From positions 9,342 to 73,341 of the forward strand of contig CAWFAZ010000046.1 in the NCBI GenBank assembly GCA_963813995.1: a stretch of DNA of 64,000 bases, in the 5' to 3' direction. This DNA is from an uncultured Verrucomicrobiae bacterium (GTDB taxonomy: Bacteria; Verrucomicrobiota; Verrucomicrobiia; Limisphaerales; Palsa-1400). The position numbers and the translations under genes were made by a program. Under the pieces are notes generated by a model. The model searched no databases. It worked only from the letters and a program-made list of their open reading frames with translations, and was not told the DNA's origin. Position 1 is the stretch's first letter. The number at the start of each line of letters is the position of its first letter. Positions 313 to 27,110 of the stretch are shown here, piece by piece.

Positions 313-1443
313 ATGAAAAAACATCTCATCTTCAACCCGGCTATTTGTGCCATGCTGTTGGGACTTCCCATCACGGGCCTGCTGACCATGACTGGTTGCA
401 CCACAGTTCCCAAAGGGCCGCCGACGCTCAAAGGCGTTTACCAGAAGGATTTTCTCATCGGCGTTGCCGTCAATCAAAATCAGTTTTCCGGGGAGGACGC
501 CCGCGGAAATCCGATCATCAAAGCCAATTTCAACTCGATTGCGCCGGAAAATGTTTTGAAGTGGCAATCGGTCCATCCACGGCCGGATGCCTACGCTTTT
601 GAGGGGCCGGATCAGTATGTCAAGTTCGGCGAGGCCAACCACATGCTCATCGTGGGCCACACACTGGTTTGGCACAGTCAGACGCCGCGCTGGGTTTTCC
701 AGGATACCAACGGCCAGCCTGTGGACCGCGAGACCCTGCTCCGGCGGATGCACGACCACATCCAGACTGTCGTCGGCCGTTACAAGGGCCGCATCAAAGT
801 CTGGGATGTCGTCAACGAGGCCCTGAACAGCAACGGCACCCTGCGCCAATCGCCCTGGCTGAAGATCATCGGCGAGGACTACATCGCCAAAGCCTTCCAG
901 TACGCCCATGAAGCCGATCCCAAAGCAGTGCTGCGTTACAATGATTATGCCCTGGAAAGCGAACCCAAACGCAAAGGCGCAATTGCGCTGCTCAAGAAAC
1001 TCCAGGCCCAAGGCGTGCCGGTCACGGCCATAGGGTTGCAGGGACACTGTAATTTGAGCTCTCCGACCGTGGGGCAGGAGGACGCCGCCATCGCCGCCTT
1101 CGCCGGGCTAAAGCTGCAAGTGATGGTGACCGAACTGGACATTGACTGCTCCCGCGGCGGCCAGCGAACCACCAGCGCGGACGTTGCCGACAACGCCCGG
1201 ACGCAAGGCGGCGGAAATTCATCCGCCGACGGTCTTTCCGACGACCTCCAGCAACAATTAGCCAAGCGTTACTCCGATCTCTTCGGCGTATTCCTCAAGC
1301 ATAAGGATGTGGTCAAGCTGGTGACCTTTTGGGGTGTGACCGACGCCGATTCCTGGCGGGCGCGCGGCAACCCGCTGTTGTTCGACAGGAATGGCCAGCC
1401 AAAACCCGCGTTTGACGCCGTGATTAAAGCGGCGGGACAGTAG
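313..1443 (+). CDS. Endo-1,4-beta-xylanase, GH10, probably a lipoprotein
   Basis: GH10 motifs PENVLKW, GHTLVWHSQ, WDVVNEA (acid/base Glu), IGLQGH, VTELDI (nucleophile), TFWGVTD; hydrophobic N-terminus ending LTMTGC. Confidence 0.93.
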   Translation: MKKHLIFNPAICAMLLGLPITGLLTMTGCTTVPKGPPTLKGVYQKDFLIGVAVNQNQFSGEDARGNPIIKANFNSIAPENVLKWQSVHPRPDAYAFEGPDQYVKFGEANHMLIVGHTLVWHSQTPRWVFQDTNGQPVDRETLLRRMHDHIQTVVGRYKGRIKVWDVVNEALNSNGTLRQSPWLKIIGEDYIAKAFQYAHEADPKAVLRYNDYALESEPKRKGAIALLKKLQAQGVPVTAIGLQGHCNLSSPTVGQEDAAIAAFAGLKLQVMVTELDIDCSRGGQRTTSADVADNARTQGGGNSSADGLSDDLQQQLAKRYSDLFGVFLKHKDVVKLVTFWGVTDADSWRARGNPLLFDRNGQPKPAFDAVIKAAGQ

Positions 1444-1479
1444 TTAAAGCAGCGGCGTGGATAAAGAATCAGACGGAAA

Positions 1480-1860
1480 TCAAGCGCTTTCCAAAATGGC
1501 GACGGCGGCGGCTAGTTTGGCGGTGTGACTGAGGCTGAGATGAACGATGCGTCCGCCCCGTTCGCGCAGGAGGGTTTGGCCTTTGCCGTGCAGGACCACA
1601 TAAGGTTCCCCGGAATCCTTGCGGCATATTTCCATGTCCTGCCAGCCCAATTGCCGTCCGATCCCGGTGCCGAAGGCCTTCGAGATGGCTTCTTTTCCGG
1701 CAAAACGCGCCGCCAAAAATGGGCCGGGGGATTTGTGAGAGAGGCAGTAGGCCAGCTCGGAGGGGCGGAGAATTCGTTGCAGAAACCGATCGCCGAATTT
1801 TTCACAGGCAGCTTCAACGCGCTGCACTTCGATGATGTCAATGCCGGAACCGAGTATCAA
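1480..1860 (-). CDS. acpS: Holo-[acyl-carrier-protein] synthase
   Basis: GSGIDIIEV, AARFAGKEAISKAFGTGIG, HLSLSHT; lies downstream of pdxJ, a common arrangement. Confidence 0.95.
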   Translation of the reverse strand: MILGSGIDIIEVQRVEAACEKFGDRFLQRILRPSELAYCLSHKSPGPFLAARFAGKEAISKAFGTGIGRQLGWQDMEICRKDSGEPYVVLHGKGQTLLRERGGRIVHLSLSHTAKLAAAVAILESA

Positions 1861-1876
1861 AGTGGCTGGGTAAGGT

Positions 1877-2620
1877 TCAAGGTTGGCCGGTTTCTTCCAT
1901 GACGAGCAGCATCTCGCGCACGGCCGTGGACAGGCCGGCGACGATGGCGCGGCTGATAATGCTGTGCCCTATGTTTAGCTCGACTAAATGAGGCACCTGG
2001 CGAAGGGCGGGGACGTTTCGATAATTCAACCCATGACCGGCGTTGACTTGCAGGCCCAATTGATGGGCTTGCGTGGCCGCCGCGATCAGGCGCTCGAGTT
2101 CCCCGGCCCGCTCGCGCTTGCGATGAAAGTTTTCCGCAAAAGCGCCGGTGTGCAATTCGACGAATTGGCCGCCCACGCGCGCGGCGGCTTCTATTTGCGC
2201 CGGGTCGGGCGTAATGAAAAGACTGACTTGAATGCCGGCGTCATTGAATTTCTTGCGCACATCAGAGAGGGCCAGCCATTGGCTGGCCGCGTCCAGCCCG
2301 CCTTCCGTCGTCACTTCGGCGCGCCGCTCCGGCACCAGGCAAACGATGTCGGGTTTCAGCTGCAGGGCGATGGACAGGATCTCCGGTGTGTTGGCCATTT
2401 CGAGATTGAGCCGGGTTTTGAGGACTTGCCGGAGTTTTCGAATATCGCGATCCTGCATGTGCCTGCGGTCTTCGCGCAAGTGGGCGGTGATGCCGTGCGC
2501 GCCGGCGGATTCGCAGATGAGGGCCGCTCCAATCGGGTCCGGTTCGCCGCCTTCGCGCCCGCGATAGCGCACCTCGCGCAAGGTGGCCACATGATCAATG
2601 TTCACTCCCAATTTGAGCAT
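1877..2620 (-). CDS. pdxJ: Pyridoxine 5'-phosphate synthase
   Basis: [52 protein letters not shown]. Confidence 0.97.
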
Positions 2621-2627
2621 AAGCCTG

Positions 2628-4289
2628 CTAATGCGAAGGCGAAGGCGGTCCCGACCTGGACATCTTCGCTTGCGGCAGCAAACTCAAGTCGAGCGGGCCG
2701 GCCGGCGTGTCGCTCAGCCAGTGGGAGAGCAGAACCAACTCCAGGCTCGAGAAAACAAAGGGTGAATTGCGAAGGACGGTCAATTCGTTCGGGCCGGTCT
2801 TGGTCACTTCTGTGACCGTGTTGCCCAGGAAGGGGGCCAAACCGAGCAGCCATTGCTTTTGGGCGTTCAGGCGGGATTGAACACCAGGGGCGGCAAGAGT
2901 ATTGGTGCCGGGCTTGGCGGGAGATGCCCCGGCAACCAATGGCTCGCGCGGCCCAACGCCAAGCACCTGAAGGATGGGCAGCACTTCCGTCACGGTCAGT
3001 AAGTGCCACACACGGGGACCGGTCAGTTCCCAATCGTAATAGACCAAATCGGTCCGGTCTTGGAATTGCGCCCATAAAGCCTTCGGCGCGGGGGCTTTCC
3101 CCGGAGTCAGCGGGAACAGGCCGGCGACAAGAAACTGGCCGTTGCTTGCCGGCGCAGGCAGCACGATGGGAGCGATTAATTGCAGCTTTGACCAAACGAG
3201 TCGCGATGCTTTGGGCTGCCAGGTGAGTTCTGTTCCGTTGAGCGCTTTCAACTTGGGATTCAGCGCGCCGATGGCTTGGGCGGATAATGTCGCCAGCGTG
3301 TTGCCGGGATCATTCACAGGCCACGCCACATAACTCTGGAATGCCATTTCGCCCATTGACCAAAAATAGAACTGGTCGCTCAATGGATTGGTGCAGAACC
3401 GCGAGAGGGTTTCATCCGATTTCAGGAATGGTTCCACATTCTGGCCCGTGGCAAAGCTGGACAGCGGTTCGCGCACCAGGTTGGTTGGGAGGCTCATTGG
3501 GTGAGGTTGCCATTGAATCGCCTCTGGATAAGTCACCTGGCTTGTCATGTGAAAATTCCCCTGCCCCGCGCTGATGGCCATTTGTGTGCGGGCCAGTTTT
3601 AAGGGGCAGGAAGACAATGGAAACCAGTTGGCCAGCCGGGGCCAATCCACATCCGCCTCGAACCAGTTGAAATCCAGGGCCGGGCCGGGCCGTCCGGTCT
3701 TTTGAATCTGTTGCAGATAGTCGGACCGCACCGATGCCAAATCCCCGCCTCTGCCCACCAACAACCAGTCCCGCGCCGGCACCATCCAAAATGAATCGCT
3801 TGCCCCTCTGTTCCATTGCCAGCCGGAGAACGTTTCTGCGCGGAGTTCCTCCCCCGGCCCGGGACTTGCGGTCTTCAAGTTTTGCTCCCAGACCTGCGCG
3901 CGTTGGCTGTCCAGGTGGACGGCGAGAACATAATTGATGGGCTTGCCGGAAGAACCGCCCAGGCTGGCGATGGATTCGGCCCGCAGCAGGTCGTCCAGCA
4001 AAGGCCGCAGCAATGAAACGGTCTGCTGGTTCGTTTGAAAATGAAGCGATGCCGCAAGATTCGTGGAAAGCCGGTTGAGAACCAAATCTTCAAAGCGGAG
4101 GGTCGATGGCAGGGCAAAGACTTTTCTGGCTGCGGCGGCGTTTGTGTCTTCGGCCAATGGCGCGGCCCCGAGAAAGTGGTATTGCAGCACGACATTTTCC
4201 GGCTTGTCGGCTCCAACGCAGAGGAAAGGCAGCGCCAGCGCAGCCGCGCCCGGGCAAAGCCATCTGAGAAAGGTGCTGAGAATTCGCAT
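2628..4289 (-). CDS. Hypothetical exported protein
   Basis: 553-aa ORF with signal-peptide-like N-terminus, 7 nt upstream of pdxJ on the same strand. Confidence 0.75.
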
Positions 4290-8313: not shown

Positions 8314-9558
8314 ATGAATAACAGGCGCAATTATCCGCTGTTGCTGGCCAGCCAGTTTTTGAGCGCCTTCGGCGATAACCTCATTCTCATGCTCATCCTC
8401 GGGCCGTTCCTGAACCAGTTCAAGGCCGGCACAATCACGGGGGAAGCGCAAAGCGTCGCCAATATCTATTACACCAGCCTGTTGTTCATGCCTTATGTTC
8501 TGCTCGCGCCGCTGGCCGGTTATCTGAACGACCGCTTTTCCAAAAATCGCTGGCTGCTCGGCGGAAACTTCATCAAATTGGCCGGCACCGGCCTGGTCTC
8601 CCTTGGCCTGGTTTTCGGCTCCGCCTGGCAGGGGATTGGCTATTTCACGGTCGGAATCGGGGCCTGTGTTTATTCGCCGGCCAAGTATGGCATCCTGCCG
8701 GAAATTCTCCCGGCGGAGCGGCTGGTCAAAGCCAACGGGTTGATGGAATTGCTGACGCTTATTGCCATTTTGACGGGCAACATCGGCGGCTCGGCCGCGT
8801 TTGGCGGATATCCGCTGCCCCTTTGTTATCTGCTGGTCATTGGCGTCTATGGGTTGTCGCTTGTCCTCAACCTTCTGATGTCCCGAACACCCTCCTACCG
8901 GGAAGTGCGGCTGCGGGGCAGCATCCGGCAGTTTTTCTCCAACCTGGCCGCGTTGTTTTCGCAAAAGAGACTGGCGCGCATCCTGATCGGCACGGCGCTG
9001 TTTTGGATTTGCGGGGCGATCCTCAAAATGAATTTTCAGCCCTGGGGCCAGCAAGTTTTGCAGTTGACAACCATGTTGCAGATCAGCCTGCTGGGTCTCT
9101 GGCTGAGCGTCGGCGTCATGATGGGCAGCGTGCTGGCGGGACAGCTTTATGCCGTGGGCGATTTGCACGCGACGCGGCGTTATGGGTGGCTGTTGGCCGC
9201 CGGCATCGCGCTTCTCGGAAGCATCGGAGGGCTTCTGGTTCATGGATTGAATTATCCCAATATTTTGGCGCCGGCCGTTCTGATTCTTACGGGCCTGATT
9301 GCCGGTCTGTTTCTTATTCCGCTCAACGCCGCGCTGCAAGCCGAGTCGCGCAAGGACAAACTGGGCAAAACCATCGCCACGCAGAACGGTTTTGAAAACC
9401 TGGCCATGCTGGGTGGCAGCCTTTTGGCCTTCATCGACGTCAAAGTGGGATTTAACCCGTCGGAACTTTTTCTTGCGCTGGCCGCGTTTGCCGCCATCGT
9501 CGTTATCTGGCTAAAGATTCCGCCAAAACTCCAAATGAACAATGCAACCCCGGAATAA
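8314..9558 (+). CDS. lplT: MFS lysophospholipid transporter, LplT-like
   Basis: SQFLSAFGDN, YSPAKYGILPE, LVKANGLME, IPLNAALQ, IATQNGFEN match LplT-family motifs; linked to aas. Confidence 0.85.
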   Translation: MNNRRNYPLLLASQFLSAFGDNLILMLILGPFLNQFKAGTITGEAQSVANIYYTSLLFMPYVLLAPLAGYLNDRFSKNRWLLGGNFIKLAGTGLVSLGLVFGSAWQGIGYFTVGIGACVYSPAKYGILPEILPAERLVKANGLMELLTLIAILTGNIGGSAAFGGYPLPLCYLLVIGVYGLSLVLNLLMSRTPSYREVRLRGSIRQFFSNLAALFSQKRLARILIGTALFWICGAILKMNFQPWGQQVLQLTTMLQISLLGLWLSVGVMMGSVLAGQLYAVGDLHATRRYGWLLAAGIALLGSIGGLLVHGLNYPNILAPAVLILTGLIAGLFLIPLNAALQAESRKDKLGKTIATQNGFENLAMLGGSLLAFIDVKVGFNPSELFLALAAFAAIVVIWLKIPPKLQMNNATPE

Positions 9559-16915: not shown

Positions 16916-16990
16916 GCGCGCTTAGCTCAGCGGTAGAGCATTACCTTCACACGGTAGGGGTCGCAGGTTCAAAACCTGCAGCGCGCACCA
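16916..16990 (+). tRNA. tRNA-Val(CAC)
   Basis: GCGCGC acceptor stem, D-arm AGCTCAGCGGTAGAGC, anticodon arm TTACC-TTCACAC-GGTAG, T-loop GGTTCAAA, encoded CCA. Confidence 0.93.
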
Positions 16991-17051
16991 TTCCCCGGAA
17001 AAAGCCCTGTATTTTCGCGCCAAAAAATCCGGTGTTGATATGAAAAACAAA

Positions 17052-17136
17052 TGGTGCCCGCGACAGGACTTGAACCTGTACGATGTTACTCACTAGAACC
17101 TGAATCTAGCGCGTCTGCCAATTCCGCCACGCGGGC
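17052..17136 (-). tRNA. tRNA-Leu(CAG)
   Basis: Reverse complement GCCCGCGTGGCGGAATTGGCAGACGCG-CTAGA TTCAGGT TCTAG-long variable arm-GGTTCAAGTCC...GCGGGCACCA. Confidence 0.95.
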
Positions 17137-17222: not shown

Positions 17223-18365
17223 ATGCAAACATTACGAGATAAACGACCCGGTCCCCGGAAGCGGGAAGACCATCTTTCCAAAGATGGAAAGTGGCGCTCG
17301 TTTCCGAAAGTGCCGCATCTGCTGCAATACGTTATCAGTGGGACCTACTTTGGCAAAGTAAAAATTAACGGGAAGAAAATCCGCCAGAGCCTGCGAACGG
17401 ATGTGTGGTCAACCGCGCAATTGCGGTTGAATGATTTTCTCAAGGAGCATCGGGAAAACCGCGACAGGGTGGCCCCCCCGAAATTCAGCGAGGCGGTGGA
17501 ACTGTTTAAAAAAGAGCTTGAACATGACACGACGCTCAAGCCGCAAAGCAAACAATACCGCCTCTATTGCCTGACGAAACTTCAAAGAACCTGGCCGGAC
17601 CTTTGGAATTTGCGGATCAATGAAATCACGCCCGATGCCTGCAAGGAATGGGCGGCGAAATTGGTCAGCGAAATAGCCTGCCACTATTACAACAACATGC
17701 TTGGCACGCTCAAACAGGTGCTTCAAACGGGCATCAAGGCGCATAAGGCAAATGGCGGCGGGATATTGGAAAGCCCGGCAGCGGAGTTGAAGAAAACGCG
17801 GATTAAGCAAAAGGAACTGCGGCTGCCGGAGCCGTCGCAATTCAAGGATTTGGTCAGGAACGTCCGCATGCGAAGTGGCGGCTGGGGGCCGCGTGACGGT
17901 GATTTAGTGGAATTCCTGGCGTATAGCGGTCTGCGTATCCAATCAGAGGCGGTTTGGGTGACAGGAGATGACATTGACTGGCCGCGTGAGGAAATCATCG
18001 TGCGCGGCGATCCGGTCACGGCGACAAAAAACAGCGAAACGCGCCGTGTGCCGATTCTGCCGGACATGGAGAATTTGTTGAGCCGGATGCAAGAGCGGCT
18101 TGGGTCGTTTGGCAAGGAGCCGATTCTTCAAGTGGGTAGATGCAATGAGGCCCTGGCGCGAGCGTGCAAGGAAATTGGCATTTCCAAAATCACCCACCAT
18201 GACCTGCGGCATTTGTTCGCAACGCGGTGCATCGAATCCGGCGTGGATATTCCAACGGTGTCGCGCTGGCTCGGCCACAAGGATGGCGGGGCGCTGGCCA
18301 TGAAGACCTACGGCCACTTGCGCAATGAGCACAGCCAGGCGATGGCGCAAAAGGTGAAGTTCTGA
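17223..18365 (+). CDS. Tyrosine recombinase/integrase
   Basis: AYSGLR (R), TKN (K), HDLRH (HxxR), WLGH, TYGH (Y); 380 aa with N-terminal arm-binding-like region. Confidence 0.95.
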   Translation: MQTLRDKRPGPRKREDHLSKDGKWRSFPKVPHLLQYVISGTYFGKVKINGKKIRQSLRTDVWSTAQLRLNDFLKEHRENRDRVAPPKFSEAVELFKKELEHDTTLKPQSKQYRLYCLTKLQRTWPDLWNLRINEITPDACKEWAAKLVSEIACHYYNNMLGTLKQVLQTGIKAHKANGGGILESPAAELKKTRIKQKELRLPEPSQFKDLVRNVRMRSGGWGPRDGDLVEFLAYSGLRIQSEAVWVTGDDIDWPREEIIVRGDPVTATKNSETRRVPILPDMENLLSRMQERLGSFGKEPILQVGRCNEALARACKEIGISKITHHDLRHLFATRCIESGVDIPTVSRWLGHKDGGALAMKTYGHLRNEHSQAMAQKVKF

Positions 18366-19627: not shown

Positions 19628-20824
19628 ATGCAGTCTCCTCGCGTTGAGGCGGCTGCGGCTGGCTTGACGTTGGCGCGGGTGTTGCGGGCCGGATTGCCAC
19701 CGCATACGCGGGAACACCGTTTGCCCCTCCACCATTGGAAAGTCTTGCGAGCCATCATGGCCTGCCGCACGTCCGCCCTGGGCGGACATCTCTATCAGTG
19801 CCGCCATTGCGGCAAGGAACATTTTGTCCCGCACTCCTGCCGCAACCGCCATTGCCCCTCCTGTCAGGGAGCCAACGGTTTTGACTGGCTGGACAAACAG
19901 GCCGAAGCGCTCCTGCCCATTCCTTATTTCCACCTGGTGTTCACGCTGCCCCATGACCTCAATCCCCTGATCCAGCAGAACCGCGCCCGGCTCTATGACC
20001 TGCTGTTTGACACAGTGTCGGCCACGCTGCTGGAGTTCGGGCGCAACAACCTTCACGCGCAAATCGGCGTCACCGCCGTCCTCCACACCTGGAGCCAGAC
20101 TCTGCTCGACCATTACCACCTGCATTGCATCGTCACTGGCGGCGGCTTGCGACTCAACGCACCGGGCTGGCAGGGCACGTCGCGTTACTGGCTCTTTCCC
20201 GTCAAGGCCCTGTCAAAAGTGTTCCGTGGCAAGTTCCGCGATGGCTTGCGCCAACTTTACGCCAGCGGGAAACTGGAGTTCCACGGCCAGCTTCAATTAC
20301 TGGCATCACCCGGCCTGTTTGAAAATTTGCCGCGGCAAGCCAGCGCGAAAAATTGGGTGGTCTATGCCAAGCGCCCATTCGCCGGCCCGGACGCGGTGCT
20401 GGCCTATTTGTCCCGCTACACCCATCGCGTCGGCATCACCAATCGCCGTTTGCTGGCGCTTGATCCCGTCGCGCAAACGGTTTCCTTCGCCTATAAGGAT
20501 TATGCCGACGACTCGCGAAAAAAAGTGATGACACTCGCGCTGGCGGAGTTCATCCGGCGGTTTCGACTCCATATCCTGCCGGAACGTTTCGTTAAAATCC
20601 GGCACTATGGCCTGCTGGCCAACCGCCACCGCCATGCCCGCATTGCCCAAGCCCGTGATGCCTTGCATCACCGGGCACGAAAAATCAAACCTACCACCAA
20701 AACTGCGGCGGCGGTATCCGCCACTCTACCGGTCTGTCCCAACTGCCGCCAGCCCGGCCTTGTCCTCTTGCATGTGACTCATCCCATCAAACACTACATC
20801 CCCGGTTACGCCGATTCGTCATGA
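19628..20824 (+). CDS. IS91-family (Y2/HUH) transposase
   Basis: Zn-binding CRT...CRHC...HSCRNRHCPSC, YFHLVFTLPH, HYHLHCIVTGGG (HUH), YLSRY, RHYGLL. Confidence 0.95.
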   Translation: MQSPRVEAAAAGLTLARVLRAGLPPHTREHRLPLHHWKVLRAIMACRTSALGGHLYQCRHCGKEHFVPHSCRNRHCPSCQGANGFDWLDKQAEALLPIPYFHLVFTLPHDLNPLIQQNRARLYDLLFDTVSATLLEFGRNNLHAQIGVTAVLHTWSQTLLDHYHLHCIVTGGGLRLNAPGWQGTSRYWLFPVKALSKVFRGKFRDGLRQLYASGKLEFHGQLQLLASPGLFENLPRQASAKNWVVYAKRPFAGPDAVLAYLSRYTHRVGITNRRLLALDPVAQTVSFAYKDYADDSRKKVMTLALAEFIRRFRLHILPERFVKIRHYGLLANRHRHARIAQARDALHHRARKIKPTTKTAAAVSATLPVCPNCRQPGLVLLHVTHPIKHYIPGYADSS

Positions 20825-21089: not shown

Positions 21090-21167
21090 GTAGTGTATCC
21101 GCAGTGGTTCGGAGAAAGTCCAACTGTCAAACTATCTTCACTGGCCGAACCACTGCGGATACACTAC
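21090..21167. repeat. Perfect 23-bp inverted repeat at the 3' end of the IS91-like element
   Basis: GTAGTGTATCCGCAGTGGTTCGG (21090-21112) and CCGAACCACTGCGGATACACTAC (21145-21167), 32-nt loop, just after GGCTTAGTTCAA. Confidence 0.85.
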
Positions 21168-21293
21168 TTAGCATTGTGCGGAATTGTCTGGTATCCGTTG
21201 CGTGGCACGTTTTGGCATGTATTTGCACGTAATTACATGTTTTTTACCGTTTTTTTCTTTGACATAATAAAATCAGCCTCCATATTTGCTTGC

Positions 21294-21464
21294 ATGAGCC
21301 GGTGGAAATCATGGGAAAAGCGTCGAGTCGGATTGGGGTTGCGGAAAACGGAACTTGCCAAAAAGGCTGGAGTTTCGATCAGAACTATTTACCGCCTTGA
21401 GGCGGGCGAAACCTCAATCAGCGAAGAAACGAAAAATAAAATCAAACTCGCCCTGAAAAATTAG
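21294..21464 (+). CDS. Small XRE/Cro helix-turn-helix regulator
   Basis: RRVGLGLRKTELAKKAGVSIRTIYRLEAG; TTGACA at 21259-21264 upstream. Confidence 0.8.
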   Translation: MSRWKSWEKRRVGLGLRKTELAKKAGVSIRTIYRLEAGETSISEETKNKIKLALKN

Positions 21465-21468
21465 TCTT

Positions 21469-23484
21469 ATGACAAAAAACAAAGCAAAGTTTCGTCGCCG
21501 AACCGTGTGTTTCGTCGGGATTTCAGGCAAGCCTGGTATCGCGGGGCCTATTCAGGCCCTTTCGGAGGAAACCCTCTCAGGGAAGATCATTTCGAGGGTA
21601 GAAGCCAAGTTGCGGCTGGTTAGGGAATGTTCACATTTCGTCAGGGACAATCTGGTTGAAAAACCGCCATTGAGTCGCGGCAAACTGGACGGCAATGGCA
21701 ATAGTTTGGACCGCTCCACTTCATTGAATACCTTGCCGACCTGTTGCCGGGTCGTGCCGTGGATGCGGGTGTCGGCCACGCCGCTTTCCCAATCCAAAAG
21801 GAAAAGGTTTTGCGCTGTCAGACTTTCAAAGCAGCGGCCTTTGAGCGCGTTGTTCTGGGCAAACTTCACTCCCGCCTCAATCTTGCCCTTGTGCTGCGGC
21901 ATGGCGGGGCGCGTCGGCAACATCACCGTGCCGTAATGGCGGCAGAACTCTTCCACTTTCGGGTTCAGTTCGGGATCAAACCAGTCGGCCCGTGTCACTG
22001 CGGCACGCAGGTTTCATACCGGCGCATGATCACTTCAAAAAGATGTTCGCCGGAGTTCTTCGGCAGTTGCTTGAGGCCAAAATCGTCAATTATTAAAAGC
22101 TCCGGCTTGAGGTAGCAACGCAGGGTTCTGTCCTGCTGGTTGAAGGCTTCGTCTTTCATGAAGTCGCGCACCAGGTCGAAGATGGAACGATAAAGCACCT
22201 GAAAGTTCATTTTGATGGCTTCATAACCCACCGCCTGGGCCAAATGCGTTTTTCCCACGCCGGGCGGCCCAAGAAAAAGGACATCCTTGGCCTGGCGGAT
22301 GAAGTTGCCAGTGGCCAGATCATAAATGTCTTTGCGATGGATGGCCGGATTAAAGCTCCAGTCGAAGTCTTCCAGCGTTTTCAGGCCGCGAAAATCAGCG
22401 GCCTTGGTGCGGCGTTCCATCAGTCGCTGTTGGCGGACATTGATTTCGTCCTGGCAGATCAGTTCGAGGAACTCGGCATGGCCAAGCCGATTGGCGACCG
22501 CTTCTTGCAGGCGCACGTCCAGGGTTTGCAGCAGACCGGAGAGGCGGAGTTGTTTCAGTGTGTTTTCAAGTGTGCTCATATACAGATTTGGGTTGAGGGT
22601 TAAAACAATCCGGCGTCAATGCCTCATAAGCATCCAACGACCGGATCAAGGGGTGGGTCTCCAGAAAGTCCAGTTGCGGCGATGGCCCGGCTCGTTCCAG
22701 CAATGTGCGCAAATCCTTTAAACGCCATGTGCCGTGATGCAGGGCCTTCTCGGCAGCGGCTTCCAGCGCGACCACGGGATGTTTGCCGGCCAGGGACAAC
22801 AGGCCATGCAACACTCGTATGCCAATGGGACCGCGTTGTTGAACCATCGCTTCAGCCCAAGTGCCGGTGTGTTTGCCAATCAGCCTGGCCCGATCCAACA
22901 GGTAATCCAGATTGTGTTGAATGACGCGCCGATACGGTGAATGGAGGTGCTGCGGGTCCGTGGTAAATTTGCCCGGTTCGGCCAATGCGTGCAGTGCGAT
23001 TTGTTCCCGGCGCTGATTGAAGACGCGGATCAATCGGGACTCCCAGCGCACCCAAACCTGTCGTCCCACATACTCCGGGGGCACCGAATAATACGCCCGC
23101 TGGAACTCAACGTAACCATCCCGGTGGACACTGCGTGGCGCTTCTTCAAAGACGGGAAACAAGCTGCGGTACCCGACTTTGCGCGAGTTGCGATCCGAGT
23201 GGAAGATGTTTGAAGGCAGGCTCGTCAAAATGAAATCGAACATCGTGATATTGCTTGGCGCAATTGTGGCGGACTTTTTCAGAAGTCGGAGAGAAATTCA
23301 AATGATTTGCTGCCCTCCTGCTGATGGCAGACTTCTAAAATGGGCCGGCATAGACGAAGGTGGCCTCATAGTACTGGCGGTGGCGCATCCTTCATATGTG
23401 GGAGTTTACGCTCGCAAGCGTGTAGAGGAATACGCCGATCTAATTGCTCAAGCCGTTCGTTCGGCAACACAGGCAACTATCTGA
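21469..23484 (+). pseudogene. Uracil-DNA-glycosylase-superfamily protein split by an inverted IS21 internal segment (pieces 21469-21683 and 23160-23484)
   Basis: Joining at the shared CAA gives a 178-aa in-frame protein with FVGISGKP, TLSGK, NLVEKPPL..GKLRYPT, IVILLG and HPSY. Confidence 0.65.
21681..23162 (-). mobile_element. Permuted, inverted internal fragment of IS21 (istA C-term, istB N-term, istA middle)
   Basis: FPVFEEAPRSVHRDGYVEF..YYSVP (IstA C-term); GPPGVGKT and LLIIDD (IstB); KGKIEAGV (IstA core). Confidence 0.9.
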
Positions 23485-23587
23485 CAGGCTTTTGGGAGAA
23501 TCGTTTTTTGGCCCTATGTAGCTTCCGAGTGACGTTTGACAGACGTTTCGGACTTGATTTGGCTTGGGGAATGTGGTTTTTTACGGC

Positions 23588-24644
23588 GTGATTGTCGGCC
23601 ATGAGCCAATTAAGATTCTTGATGCGGTTTTTATAAACTCACCGCTCAAGGATTACGATCACACCCCAAAGCGGAACGAATTTACACTGCCTGTTCTCGG
23701 CCTGGGTTATATTGCGACTTGCGCTCTGAAGTCGGGATTTAACGTCGGCGTTTTGGATACAGAAGCGTTGGGTCTGGGGGTCACTAAGATCGCCCGGATG
23801 GTGAATCAGGCCAAACCGCGATGGGTAGGACTTAACCTTTTGGCTCCCACCTACCGGAACAGCGTTCAAATTCTGAGGCGCATAAGCCCCGAGATTCAAG
23901 TGATGGTCGGCGGCCATCAGGCGAAGGCGATGCCGAGAGAAATCATTGCTGACCAGCAAATCCCGCGAATTGACGCAATGGTTCTTGGTGAAGGTGAAGT
24001 GCGAGTCGAGCGACTGCTTGAAAGTGTCGAGGAACGCGCACATTTGACAAATGTGTTGTGGCGGTCGAGTAACGGCGAATTGCGGCAGGGCGAAGCGCCC
24101 TCGCAGAGGGAAAAGGCGCAGCAATTATCGCCAAGCATTGATGACATCCCTGTCATCAATCGAAAGTTTCTTATCCAAGACCCATTCAAGGCTGAAGATG
24201 GCAGGACAGAGGCCAATTTGATCGGTTCGCGTGGCTGCCCGTACAACTGTTCATTTTGTGGTGCCGCCAAAAGTGTTAATCCGAATGTTTCAATTCGGAC
24301 GCGCAGTCCAGACAATATCCTTTTGGAAATGGAGGCCCTGTCTTCCGGCTTTGGTGTAAACGCATTCCGGTTTGTTGATGATTTATTCCTTGCTCAACCG
24401 GGCTTCATGCGGCGATGCCTTAGCCGCTTCGTCACTGGCAAAGTTGGTGAAAAATGGGTTTGGGATGCTACTGGCCGTATTAATGTTCTCGCCAATGCTG
24501 ATAATTCTCAGTTGACGCTGATTAAAACCGCCGGCTGTCGTGAGATCGCATTGGGTATTGAATCAGGGAGTAGCAGGATTTTGGAATACGTTGACAAACA
24601 CATTACGCCAGAAATGACGGTCAAAGCGGTCAAAGCACTAACGA
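23588..24644 (+). pseudogene. Cobalamin-binding radical SAM protein, 3'-truncated by IS21
   Basis: PVLGLGYIA, VMVGGHQA, GEGE, SRGCPYNCSFC (CxxxCxxC), FVDDLF, GIESGS; frame runs into the IS21 left end. Confidence 0.85.
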
Positions 24645-25502
24645 TGTCAGCGGTCACTCAAAACCAGCCACGAAGGGTCGAATGAAAACCAGCCACTTTG
24701 AGGGAAGCATTGCGTATTGGGCAGCCAGGGCTGCTCTTGTGCGCAATGAACGAACTCAACGTGAACTTGCAGCATTCGATATTAACTTTGGCGGGCAATG
24801 GCTGGTCCAACCGGCGGATTGCGCGTGAACTGAGCGTCAACCGGGAGACGGTGGGCAAGTATCTGTTGCTGGCGCGTTCAAAACCGGCCATTTCGACCCC
24901 CGGCTCCGATTCTGACCCAGGACCAAAACCAGCCATTTCGACCCTCGGCTCAACAGCGGGTCGCCAGAGTCTATGCCAGCCGCATTCGCCTCAGATTGAA
25001 GCGGCGGTGGCCGTGGGGTTGAGTGCCCAACGCATTTATCAGGACTTGGTTTGCGACCACGGATTCGTTGGCAGTTATCAGGCAGTAAAGCGATTCGTGC
25101 GGCATTTGCGTGAGACCCAGCCGATCCCTTTTGTGCGGATGGAGGTGGAGCCAGGAGCCGAGGCGCAGGTGGATTTTGGCCAGGGTGCGTGGGTCATGGT
25201 GGATGGCAAACGGAAGCGGCCCCATCTGTTTCGGATTGTTTTGAGCCATTCGCGCAAAGGATACAGTGAAGTGGTGTGGCGGCAGACGACCGAGAGCTTC
25301 ATCCGGTGTCTGGAAAATGCGTTCCGTTACTTTGGGGGTGTTCCCCGCACTCTGGTCATCGACAAACCGCTCCACCATCATGACCAGCAACCGGCCACTG
25401 GAGGAATGGGGCAAACTTCTGGGCGACGTGCCCACGGCTGGGGCGATCCTGGATCGTTTTCTGCACCACGCCCAGACCATTGCCATTACCGGGCGGAGTT
25501 AT
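24645..25502 (+). mobile_element. IS21 left end with istA N-terminus fused to the istB C-terminus
   Basis: TGTCAGCGG terminus with AAAACCAGCCAC x2; istA from ATG 24746 (HTH, EAQVDFG, GVPRTLVID), then istB NRSTIMTSNRP..AILDRFLHH..GRSY. Confidence 0.9.
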
Positions 25503-25842: not shown

Positions 25843-26030
25843 TTTATTTTGTGATGAATTTTACCAGAGTTTAAGACAAGTTTACTCACCTTCTGCGAGG
25901 CCTTTCAGTGGATTCCTGAGAATTTGTGCATGAAAAGCTGGTCAAGACCGGGCTGGAAATTGCTCAAACCCTCAGATTTTTAACTGACATTTTAACTGAC
26001 ATTATCAGACATGCCGTTATAATGGATGGC

Positions 26031-27110
26031 ATGTTCGCGCCAGTTTACAACATCACCCCGGCAATCGCCAAAGCGCTTATGTCCATTGAGGCTGACAGGC
26101 AGGCGGTGGCCGATTTGCCGATTGACGTGACGATGCTTGCCAAGCTCCGCGAAACGGCGAAGTTGGTCTCGACGCATTATTCCACCCAGATTGAGGGCAA
26201 TCGCCTCACGCAACGCCAAGTGAAAGAGGCGGTGGCCGGCGCACGTTTCCCCGGCAAGGAGCGTGATGAGTTGGAGGTTCGCCACCATTATCGTGCGCTT
26301 GAAGAGGTTGAAAAACTGGCGGCGGAAGGAAAACCCCTGACGGAAAAGCAAATTCAACGCATCCACGGCCTGGTGATGACAGGCCGGCCAAAGCCGACGC
26401 CATACCGCGACGCCCAGAACGTGATCCGCGACAGCCGCACGCGGGGAATTGTTTATATGCCGCCTGAGGCCAAGGCAGTGCCGGGCCTGATGGCGGATTT
26501 GGTAAGTTGGATCAACAAACAGCTTTATGAGGGCGATTTGCCGGTGCCGATCATCGCGGCCCTGGCGCATTATCAGTTCGCCACAATCCACCCGTATTAT
26601 GACGGCAATGGCCGCACGGCAAGGCTGCTGGCGAATTTCATTCTGCACAAGGCTGGCTACGGACTGAAAGGCATCTATTCCCTGGACGAATATTACGCCC
26701 GGAATCTGGAAGGGTATTATGCCGGACTGAACGTCGGACCTTCACACAATTATCACCTCGGGCGGGCGGGAGCCGACGTGACGGGCTTTTTGGTTTATTT
26801 CTGTGTCGGAATGGCGGATGCGTTTGCGGCTGTCAAGATGCAGGCGGCGGAAGCCGCGAAACGGGGCGGCAAGGATCTCAGCGGCGCTTTGAAAAAAGTC
26901 GATCCCCGGCAAAGACGGCTCTTGGAATTATTCAAAAAGCAGGAAGTGGCAACCGCAGAGGAGATTGCCGCTCATTTGCGGCTCAGTCATCGCACGATCG
27001 TGGGCCTGTGCCGGGGCTGGCTGAAATCGGGGTTTCTTGAACCGCATGACCCGTCCCGGAAGCGTCGTTCGTATCAGTTGGGGCGGGCGTTCAAGCCGCT
27101 CGTGGCATGA
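26031..27110 (+). CDS. Fic family protein (class II-like) with C-terminal winged HTH
   Basis: HPYYDGNGRTAR Fic motif; N-terminal inhibitory STQIEG; tandem TTAACTGACAT repeat upstream (~25980-26003). Confidence 0.92.
   Translation: MFAPVYNITPAIAKALMSIEADRQAVADLPIDVTMLAKLRETAKLVSTHYSTQIEGNRLTQRQVKEAVAGARFPGKERDELEVRHHYRALEEVEKLAAEGKPLTEKQIQRIHGLVMTGRPKPTPYRDAQNVIRDSRTRGIVYMPPEAKAVPGLMADLVSWINKQLYEGDLPVPIIAALAHYQFATIHPYYDGNGRTARLLANFILHKAGYGLKGIYSLDEYYARNLEGYYAGLNVGPSHNYHLGRAGADVTGFLVYFCVGMADAFAAVKMQAAEAAKRGGKDLSGALKKVDPRQRRLLELFKKQEVATAEEIAAHLRLSHRTIVGLCRGWLKSGFLEPHDPSRKRRSYQLGRAFKPLVA

Follow-up and report, generated by a model that had tools for sequence, protein, structure and literature searches.

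The window analysed here is a stretch of 64,000 nucleotides from an uncultured Verrucomicrobiae bacterium (positions 9342–73341 of contig C46 in a 4.89-Mb assembly of 90 contigs that is 90% complete). Between 21469 and 25502 it carries the scrambled pieces of an IS21-family insertion sequence (IS) and of a gene for a UDG-like protein. Positions without a contig name refer to the window, and IS positions are numbered from the left end of the element. The part of the window from 17 to 28 kb is island-like in content, and within it the N- and C-terminal parts of the UDG-like gene are separated by two inverted pieces of the IS. The left end of the IS and a short fragment of istB lie further downstream, after the first part of a B12-binding radical-SAM gene (Table 1). 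The rearrangement breaks up istA, istB and the UDG-like gene, with loss of function as the predicted result.

A first-pass annotation of this DNA, made from the letters alone, had described four junctions that pair up reciprocally, with the cores CAA, TT, CAA and AA. All four (J1 to J4) lie at the positions that it had assigned to them. The region was cut at these junctions with the cores kept on both sides, and the six resulting pieces (A to F) were run by BLAST against the whole assembly, with an intact copy of the same element on contig C41 (2613..279, reverse strand) as the reference. The four IS pieces cover the C41 copy without a missing base, adjacent pieces sharing exactly 2, 3 and 2 bp, which bears out the claim that no bases were gained or lost; the alignment to the intact copy shows neither extra nor missing bases at the joins. 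At the 3-bp core the similarity reaches slightly beyond the core itself (CAGTTTG versus CAGCTTG, 6 of 7 positions). The sole internal difference from C41 is a run of five A (T5 on the IS strand) in segment C, where C41, C40 and C32 have T4. The T5 run, which a high-depth contig of the read run X1 (see below) also shows, keeps istB in frame, whereas T4 causes a frameshift immediately ahead of the Walker A motif. Either most assembled copies have a defective istB, or T4 is a consensus problem.

The rejoining of istA, istB and the UDG-like gene in frame, as originally described, is also correct. The IstB Pfam profile (PF01695) is continuous at position 185, with 2–185 on the minus-strand piece (E 2e-47) and 185–230 on the piece 25366–25501 (E 6e-13). 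Of 35 candidates for the UDG-like gene, 27 are homologs, mostly of 177–182 aa. In an alignment with eight full-length homologs the N-terminal piece (21469–21684) ends at column 72 and the C-terminal piece (23164–23481) starts at column 73, so that the two meet without gap or overlap inside GK|LRYPT, where G71, K72, L73, R74, Y75 and P76 are nearly invariant. None of the reciprocal breakpoints is an IS end, again in agreement with the annotation; the left end is at 24645 (TGTCAGCGG).

Table 1. Features of the rearranged locus and of the island-like part of the window
Feature	Position	Strand	Remarks
tRNA-Val and tRNA-Leu	16916–17136		
Tyrosine recombinase	17223–18362		
IS91-family transposase	19628–20824		402 bits versus a cut-off of 125
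HTH gene	within 17–28 kb		island-like part
Segment A: UDG-like gene, N-terminal 72 codons	21469..21683	+	ends in J1 core CAA (21681–21683); columns 1–72 of 8 full-length homologs
Segment B: middle of istA	21684..22011	−	with cores, 22013..21681 = IS 720–1052 (BLAST to C41), i.e. IS 1052..720; inverted relative to IS left end; 333 bp 100% identical to C41, C51 and C32
J2 core TT (AA on IS strand)	22012..22013		joins IS 720–721 to IS 2198–2199; 2-bp overlap on intact copy
Segment C: IS 2197..1053	22014..23159	−	with cores, 23162..22012 = IS 1050–2199 (BLAST to C41); Pfam IstB_IS21 2–185 and Mu-transpos_C_2; istA C-terminal part 23159..22566; istB N-terminal 194 codons 22579..21995; A5 run 22274–22278
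J3 core CAA	23160..23162		3-bp overlap on intact copy
Segment D: UDG-like gene, C-terminal 106 codons	23163..23484	+	Pfam UDG, E 6e-4; from column 73 of homologs
B12-binding radical-SAM gene, first ~360 codons	23564..24644	+	Pfam PF02310, PF04055; cut by IS left end
Segment E: IS left end and istA N-terminal part	24645..25365	+	= IS 1–721 (BLAST to C41); ends in J4 core AA (25364–25365); over 721 bp 100% identical to C41 and C51, 99.9% to C32
Segment F: istB C-terminal fragment, IS 2200–2335	25366..25501	+	with core, 25364–25501 = IS 2198–2335 (BLAST to C41); Pfam IstB 185–230; 99–100% identical to C41, C40, C27, C28 and C11
J5: non-reciprocal IS truncation	25501..25502		five other copies run on past IS 2335
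Fic-domain gene	25926–27110		

The intact C41 copy of the element encodes a 529-aa protein that scores 264 bits on the IS21-family IstA profile NF033546 (cut-off 160), and the istA pieces in the window match rve and Mu-transpos_C_2. The AAA+ helper ATPase IstB (PF01695) is encoded downstream of istA; on NF038214 the truncated istB piece reaches 178 bits, below the cut-off of 200. Terminal inverted repeats (TGT...ACA) with internal repeats are present. In the left end, TGTCAGCGGTCAC, the repeat AAAACCAGCCAC occurs twice; matching repeats are present in the right inverted repeat (C28:~907–966, ending in ...GTGACCGGTGACA), which is 83% identical to the left one over ~60 bp. The full element is ~3.17 kb long. 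Four copies of its left end have four different left flanks and no assembled copy has both ends on one contig; since the copies are near-identical, the element was active recently. Between istB and the right inverted repeat lie ~830 bp of extra DNA (IS 2336–3166; C28:136–966, C27 and C40:61172–61529) with a small open reading frame (ORF) resembling a membrane protein. Four of the six right-hand contexts of the element are truncated, at different points within this extra DNA. Truncated copies elsewhere end at ~IS 2619 (C11), at IS 1719 and ~2693 (C40) and at ~3041 (C27), and C43 holds a solo right end; none of these four has a reciprocal partner in the assembly. On C41 (L004 2899–5927), two head-to-tail copies of a 1.5-kb IS110-family element adjoin the intact IS21 copy.

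The copy in the window stops at a fifth breakpoint, J5, which the first-pass annotation did not contain. It is not an IS end either: C41, C40, C27, C28 and C11 continue identically past this point, and the window copy has lost its final ~830 bp, the right inverted repeat included. J5 has no partner junction in the assembly and is thus non-reciprocal. The radical-SAM fragment upstream is 71% identical to residues 7–362 of relatives of 490–507 aa, and the last ~145 codons of this gene were not found anywhere in the assembly. A separate deletion at J5 took the right end of the IS, probably together with the remainder of the radical-SAM gene.

Ancestral order and routes to the present arrangement

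The reconstructed ancestral order of the pieces is A D E b c F, in which lower case denotes the orientation found in the IS. The ancestor had the UDG-like gene followed by the B12 radical-SAM gene, with the IS21-family element inserted into the latter in the normal way. From this order the present arrangement would arise if four points within ~3.7 kb, one in the UDG-like gene and three in the IS (720–721, 1050–1052 and 2198–2199), were cut and rejoined crosswise without processing of the ends, each exchange using an identity of 2–3 bp (CAA with CAA, AA with AA). The internal 1,478 bp of the IS would thereby have left its copy, producing J4, and would now lie inverted and circularly permuted inside the UDG-like gene, bounded and interrupted by J1, J2 and J3. 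Because the two junction pairs share the same breakpoints to the base, chance does not account for the scramble. On the ancestral map the four breakpoints and J5 all lie inside ~3.8 kb.

In a symbolic check the observed order was obtained both by two overlapping inversions and by the excision of a circle that re-enters at a new point, as had been proposed from the sequence. In the first route, [D E b] would invert to give A B e d c F (J1 and J3), after which [e d c] would invert to give A B C D E F (J2 and J4). In the second, an exchange between the direct AA sites would release b-c as a circle of 1,478 bp, leaving J4 on the chromosome and J2 as the circle junction; the circle would then open at IS 1050–1052 and join the CAA of the UDG-like gene to form J1 and J3. 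The obligatory first step would differ between them, being the exchange between the UDG-like gene and IS 1052 in the inversion route and the AA/AA exchange in the circle route.

An un-rearranged allele was sought by DNA searches with 21200–21683 and with 23160–24660, each of which found it in 0 of 40 related genomes. A metagenome scan for the same allele returned ten loci, all just 61–70% identical. In both of the two long metagenome loci examined among these ten (L011 and L018), the UDG-like gene clusters with a B12 radical-SAM gene of 490–507 aa, which supports the proposed ancestral neighbourhood. The cluster in these loci (L011 3960–8740 and L018 459–4532) is conserved and also includes an IrrE-like M78 peptidase, with a thymidylate-kinase-like gene in addition in L011. 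The combination of UDG-like protein, B12 radical-SAM enzyme and M78 peptidase may represent a DNA-modification or defence island.

We propose that the locus probably records a real, one-off and balanced exchange, illegitimate in that the partners are unrelated and conservative in its chemistry. The data establish the anatomy of the locus, the reciprocity of its junctions and the ancestral order; the chemistry, the single occurrence and the sequence of steps are inferred from them.

Chemistry of the exchange and candidate enzymes

Both products of each exchange have been kept to the base, which argues for conservative cutting and rejoining in which the ends were protein-linked or cohesive. Candidate activities would be the swapping of subunits between the cleavage complexes of a type II topoisomerase, or a site-specific recombinase acting away from its own site. 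By our own arithmetic, joins that are blind to homology would show an identity of at least 2 bp with p ~0.16 and of at least 3 bp with p ~0.05, or both with p ~0.02, so that pairing of short overhangs was likely required.

Identities of 2–3 bp are also within the range used by microhomology-mediated joining, and the five breakpoints are tightly clustered, one of them (J5) with loss of DNA. These features would fit breakage and repair without any recombinase, either by end joining of double-strand breaks or by template switching at microhomologies similar to microhomology-mediated break-induced replication. However, the eight fragment ends show no loss of bases, unlike the products of end joining, and Ku was not found in the assembly, which is 90% complete. 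A replicative path would presumably have had to break off and resume at an identical base on three occasions. Since template switching thus needs three base-exact coincidences, end joining needs eight unprocessed ends and Ku was not found, cutting and rejoining is the best reading, and we give breakage and repair little credence.

The first-pass annotation had attributed the junctions to a conservative recombinase of low specificity that is shuffling and inactivating the cargo of the island, a view considered here as that of a dedicated enzyme of serine type that acts repeatedly. Several features of the sites are in line with such an enzyme. The overlaps of 3 and 2 bp both contain AA, so that partner sites share an identical central dinucleotide, the same in all four, exchanged without gain or loss as expected of serine recombinases. 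C at +2 and G at +4 are likewise common to all four sites, three of which read C-AA-N-CTG; the pattern is suggestive, with a post-hoc estimate of p ~0.01–0.02. The genome encodes three serine recombinases, on C42 and C38, one of which has a frame of 240 aa and so matches small resolvases or invertases in size. In addition, J5 joins the cluster of breakpoints, and the truncation of four of the six right-hand contexts at different points could be taken as a sign of repeated activity.

Against this, no serine recombinase (PF00239) was found among the 48 ORFs scanned in the 64-kb window. The AA, the C and the G are all that the four sites have in common: none of the four is dyad-symmetric, and the flanks of partner pairs agree at 9 of 24 positions versus ~6 expected. 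No convincing consensus emerged from these sites, and the 2-bp core that had been put forward as typical of serine recombinases does fit them, yet it fits other cut-and-rejoin chemistries equally well.

Recurrence was addressed by two scans of the genome, one based on the detection of split alignments and the other on pairs of breakpoints in 36 repeat groups (253 kb of repeats); both are blind to products that were not assembled and to events between two unique sequences. Internal reciprocal breakpoints were found at this locus only, and the other pairs detected are element ends or tandem copies. The other truncations of the element are without partner junctions, and the notion of an ongoing shuffling of island cargo was not upheld. 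A dedicated recombinase that acts repeatedly therefore appears very unlikely.

One apparent second example, at C40:61172–62146, was examined and rejected. Here IS 1719–2693 lies between a relaxase gene and unrelated DNA, and comparison with a full-length homolog (P0030, 365 aa) places the end of the relaxase at about residue 212, with the remainder absent from the assembly, so that the fragment is a plain truncation and not a seamless insertion. The surrounding region (L003 4487–6211) carries a MobC-like gene and the relaxase gene, followed by the inverted IS21 fragment, and the junction between the last two is a loose end in the read run X2.

A narrower proposal is that the sites were left by a conservative recombinase of a kind not yet characterised, whose core is 2 nt long and whose site is degenerate and very short, and which in a single episode excised an internal IS circle and re-inserted it 2.2 kb away. 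Candidates for this role would be the small serine recombinase on C42 or a mis-targeted RNA-guided recombinase of the IS110 family, of which the genome has eight copies above the cut-off. We consider this proposal distinctly improbable. The IS110-family target was compared with the breakpoints and rejected, as the copies sit in a TGACCCC-type repeat that is unlike the four sites. Binding sites of IstA were likewise rejected: just the site at IS 2198 overlaps a match of at least 8 of 12 to AAAACCAGCCAC (such matches occur at 23 of 4,648 positions), which we take as chance.

The favoured reading of a single balanced exchange can be set beside several known systems. Canonical IS21 transposition, by the DDE transposase IstA and the ATPase IstB, shares with the locus a bona fide IS21-family element. 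However, the five breakpoints all lie away from the ends of the element, the inserted IS piece is not flanked by a target duplication of 4–8 bp, and DDE chemistry does not yield reciprocal products. Serine invertases and resolvases such as Hin, Gin and Cin, when acting at quasi-sites, perform conservative exchange that requires the partners to have the same 2-bp core. They can bring about inversion as well as excision, and in these respects they resemble the events proposed here. In the known cases a recombinase gene lies nearby and at least one of the sites is a genuine dyad-symmetric site of 26 bp, whereas this locus has neither. Balanced rearrangements of the chromoplexy or chromothripsis type in eukaryotes also have clustered breakpoints, with the fragments put together again in altered order and orientation and little loss; they differ in their small losses or insertions at the joins and in their use of end joining, in contrast to the base-perfect joins found here within 4 kb of a bacterial genome.

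A further likeness is to the exchange of subunits by DNA gyrase, a type IIA topoisomerase, which is a published model for illegitimate recombination (the Ikeda model; PMC11164529). As the description of the model in that paper has it, the exchange is reciprocal and independent of homology, involves two duplexes, and needs neither a specific site nor element ends, and its covalent protein–DNA intermediates ensure that nothing is lost (PMC11164529). At the present locus, too, both reciprocal products were formed with little or no homology. The 4-bp stagger expected of gyrase is not readable from the products, and gyrase is named here as a candidate only. The published gyrase motif is a degenerate 130-bp pattern (PMC6379681) and thus beyond a test on four sites. 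The published gyrase cases come from extracts or from quinolone treatment, whereas the present one is in a natural genome.

Support from independent read contigs

The arrangement might also be an artefact, with the contig a chimera of strains, of library molecules or of a wrongly traversed repeat, and the order present in no single genome. The assembly, 90% complete in 90 contigs, comes from a soil metagenome. The IS is a repeat of six to seven copies in which many contigs break. Contigs assembled independently from public read runs were compared with the locus, as a form of the junction check by reads that the first-pass annotation had called for. The best-matching public run, X1, is a soil metagenome with a share of words of 0.90, and its Nextera adapter tails indicate an ordinary short-read library. 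Its depth is 6.8–8.8 over unique DNA and ~44–63 over the IS, from which the copy number of six to seven follows. Sums of contig depth match the bin depths exactly (5,997/154 = 38.9 at 23102–23255; 2,597/154 = 16.9 at 21562–21715). In runs X3 and X4 the IS is present and the unique DNA is nearly absent.

An independent X1 contig (k=31; 23133–24473, depth 7.47) starts 30 nt inside the IS-derived side, crosses J3 and continues into 1.3 kb of unique DNA. Its depth is like that of the flanks and no branch to an intact UDG allele is visible; its reach is the most that a unitig can show beside a repeat. J3 is thus bridged at single-copy depth, whereas J1 and J2 are uncovered, a gap that would suit an artefact, as would the depth of segment B (62.8), which is somewhat above that of E (48.4) and C (49–57). 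The gaps at J1 and J2 may come from graph cleaning of low-depth links between high-depth repeat nodes and count neither as support nor as refutation. Three normal IS junctions appear as 'joints' among the X1 contigs, as expected from other copies. Contigs C32, C27, C28 and C11 stop at IS 2195–2205, i.e. at the J2/J4 breakpoint, as expected if a branch of the graph exists there. The T5 variant private to segment C likewise counts in favour of real junctions.

Other properties of the junctions also speak against an artefact. A de Bruijn assembler cannot invent joins of 2–3 bp, and the earlier statement that short-read misassembly needs long overlaps holds. Chimeric reads are singletons and non-reciprocal, whereas here two pairs of junctions share their breakpoints to the base. 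Mis-traversal of a repeat could reassign junctions among loci but could not create them. We regard an artefact as unlikely, if somewhat less so than the biological alternatives discussed above.

Several observations weigh against the proposal of a real, balanced exchange. Independent contigs bridge one of the four junctions (J3), and with just 27–30 letters on the IS side, below the 31-letter rule. No contig of X1 or X2 covers 21625–21680 or J1, no X1 contig crosses J2, and J4 is not judgeable; X2 has a hole at 23160–23245 and hence no crossing of J3. X1 may be the very run from which this metagenome-assembled genome was built, in which case its contigs check the assembler but not the sample. 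The two segments E (721 bp) and C (1,151 bp) belong to the six- to seven-copy repeat and are longer than typical inserts, and the long-range order through them could be wrong even with every junction real. The proposal further calls for two rare events, or one event with four breaks, between unrelated sequences and without a demonstrated enzyme, and no second reciprocal event was found in the assembly, where the scan of 36 repeat groups detected complementary internal breakpoints at this locus alone.

Most work on reciprocal illegitimate recombination has used extracts, quinolone treatment or engineered substrates, and natural cases with both products side by side are rare because one of them is usually lost. 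At this locus an intact reference copy elsewhere in the genome makes both products legible down to single bases. Should raw reads bear out the junctions, the locus would be a clean natural record of conservative cutting and rejoining at just 2–3 bp that reshaped bacterial DNA and disabled both a transposon and a cargo gene at a single blow. With one event in one metagenome-assembled genome, it is a curiosity and a good test locus, not a new system.

Other features of the window

A perfect 23-nt inverted repeat with a 32-nt loop (arms at 21090–21112 and 21145–21167) lies ~270 bp downstream of the IS91-family transposase gene and may be an end structure of that element. Outside the island-like part, the minus strand at 33583–54047 carries two adjoining very long ORFs of 3,597 and 3,261 aa.

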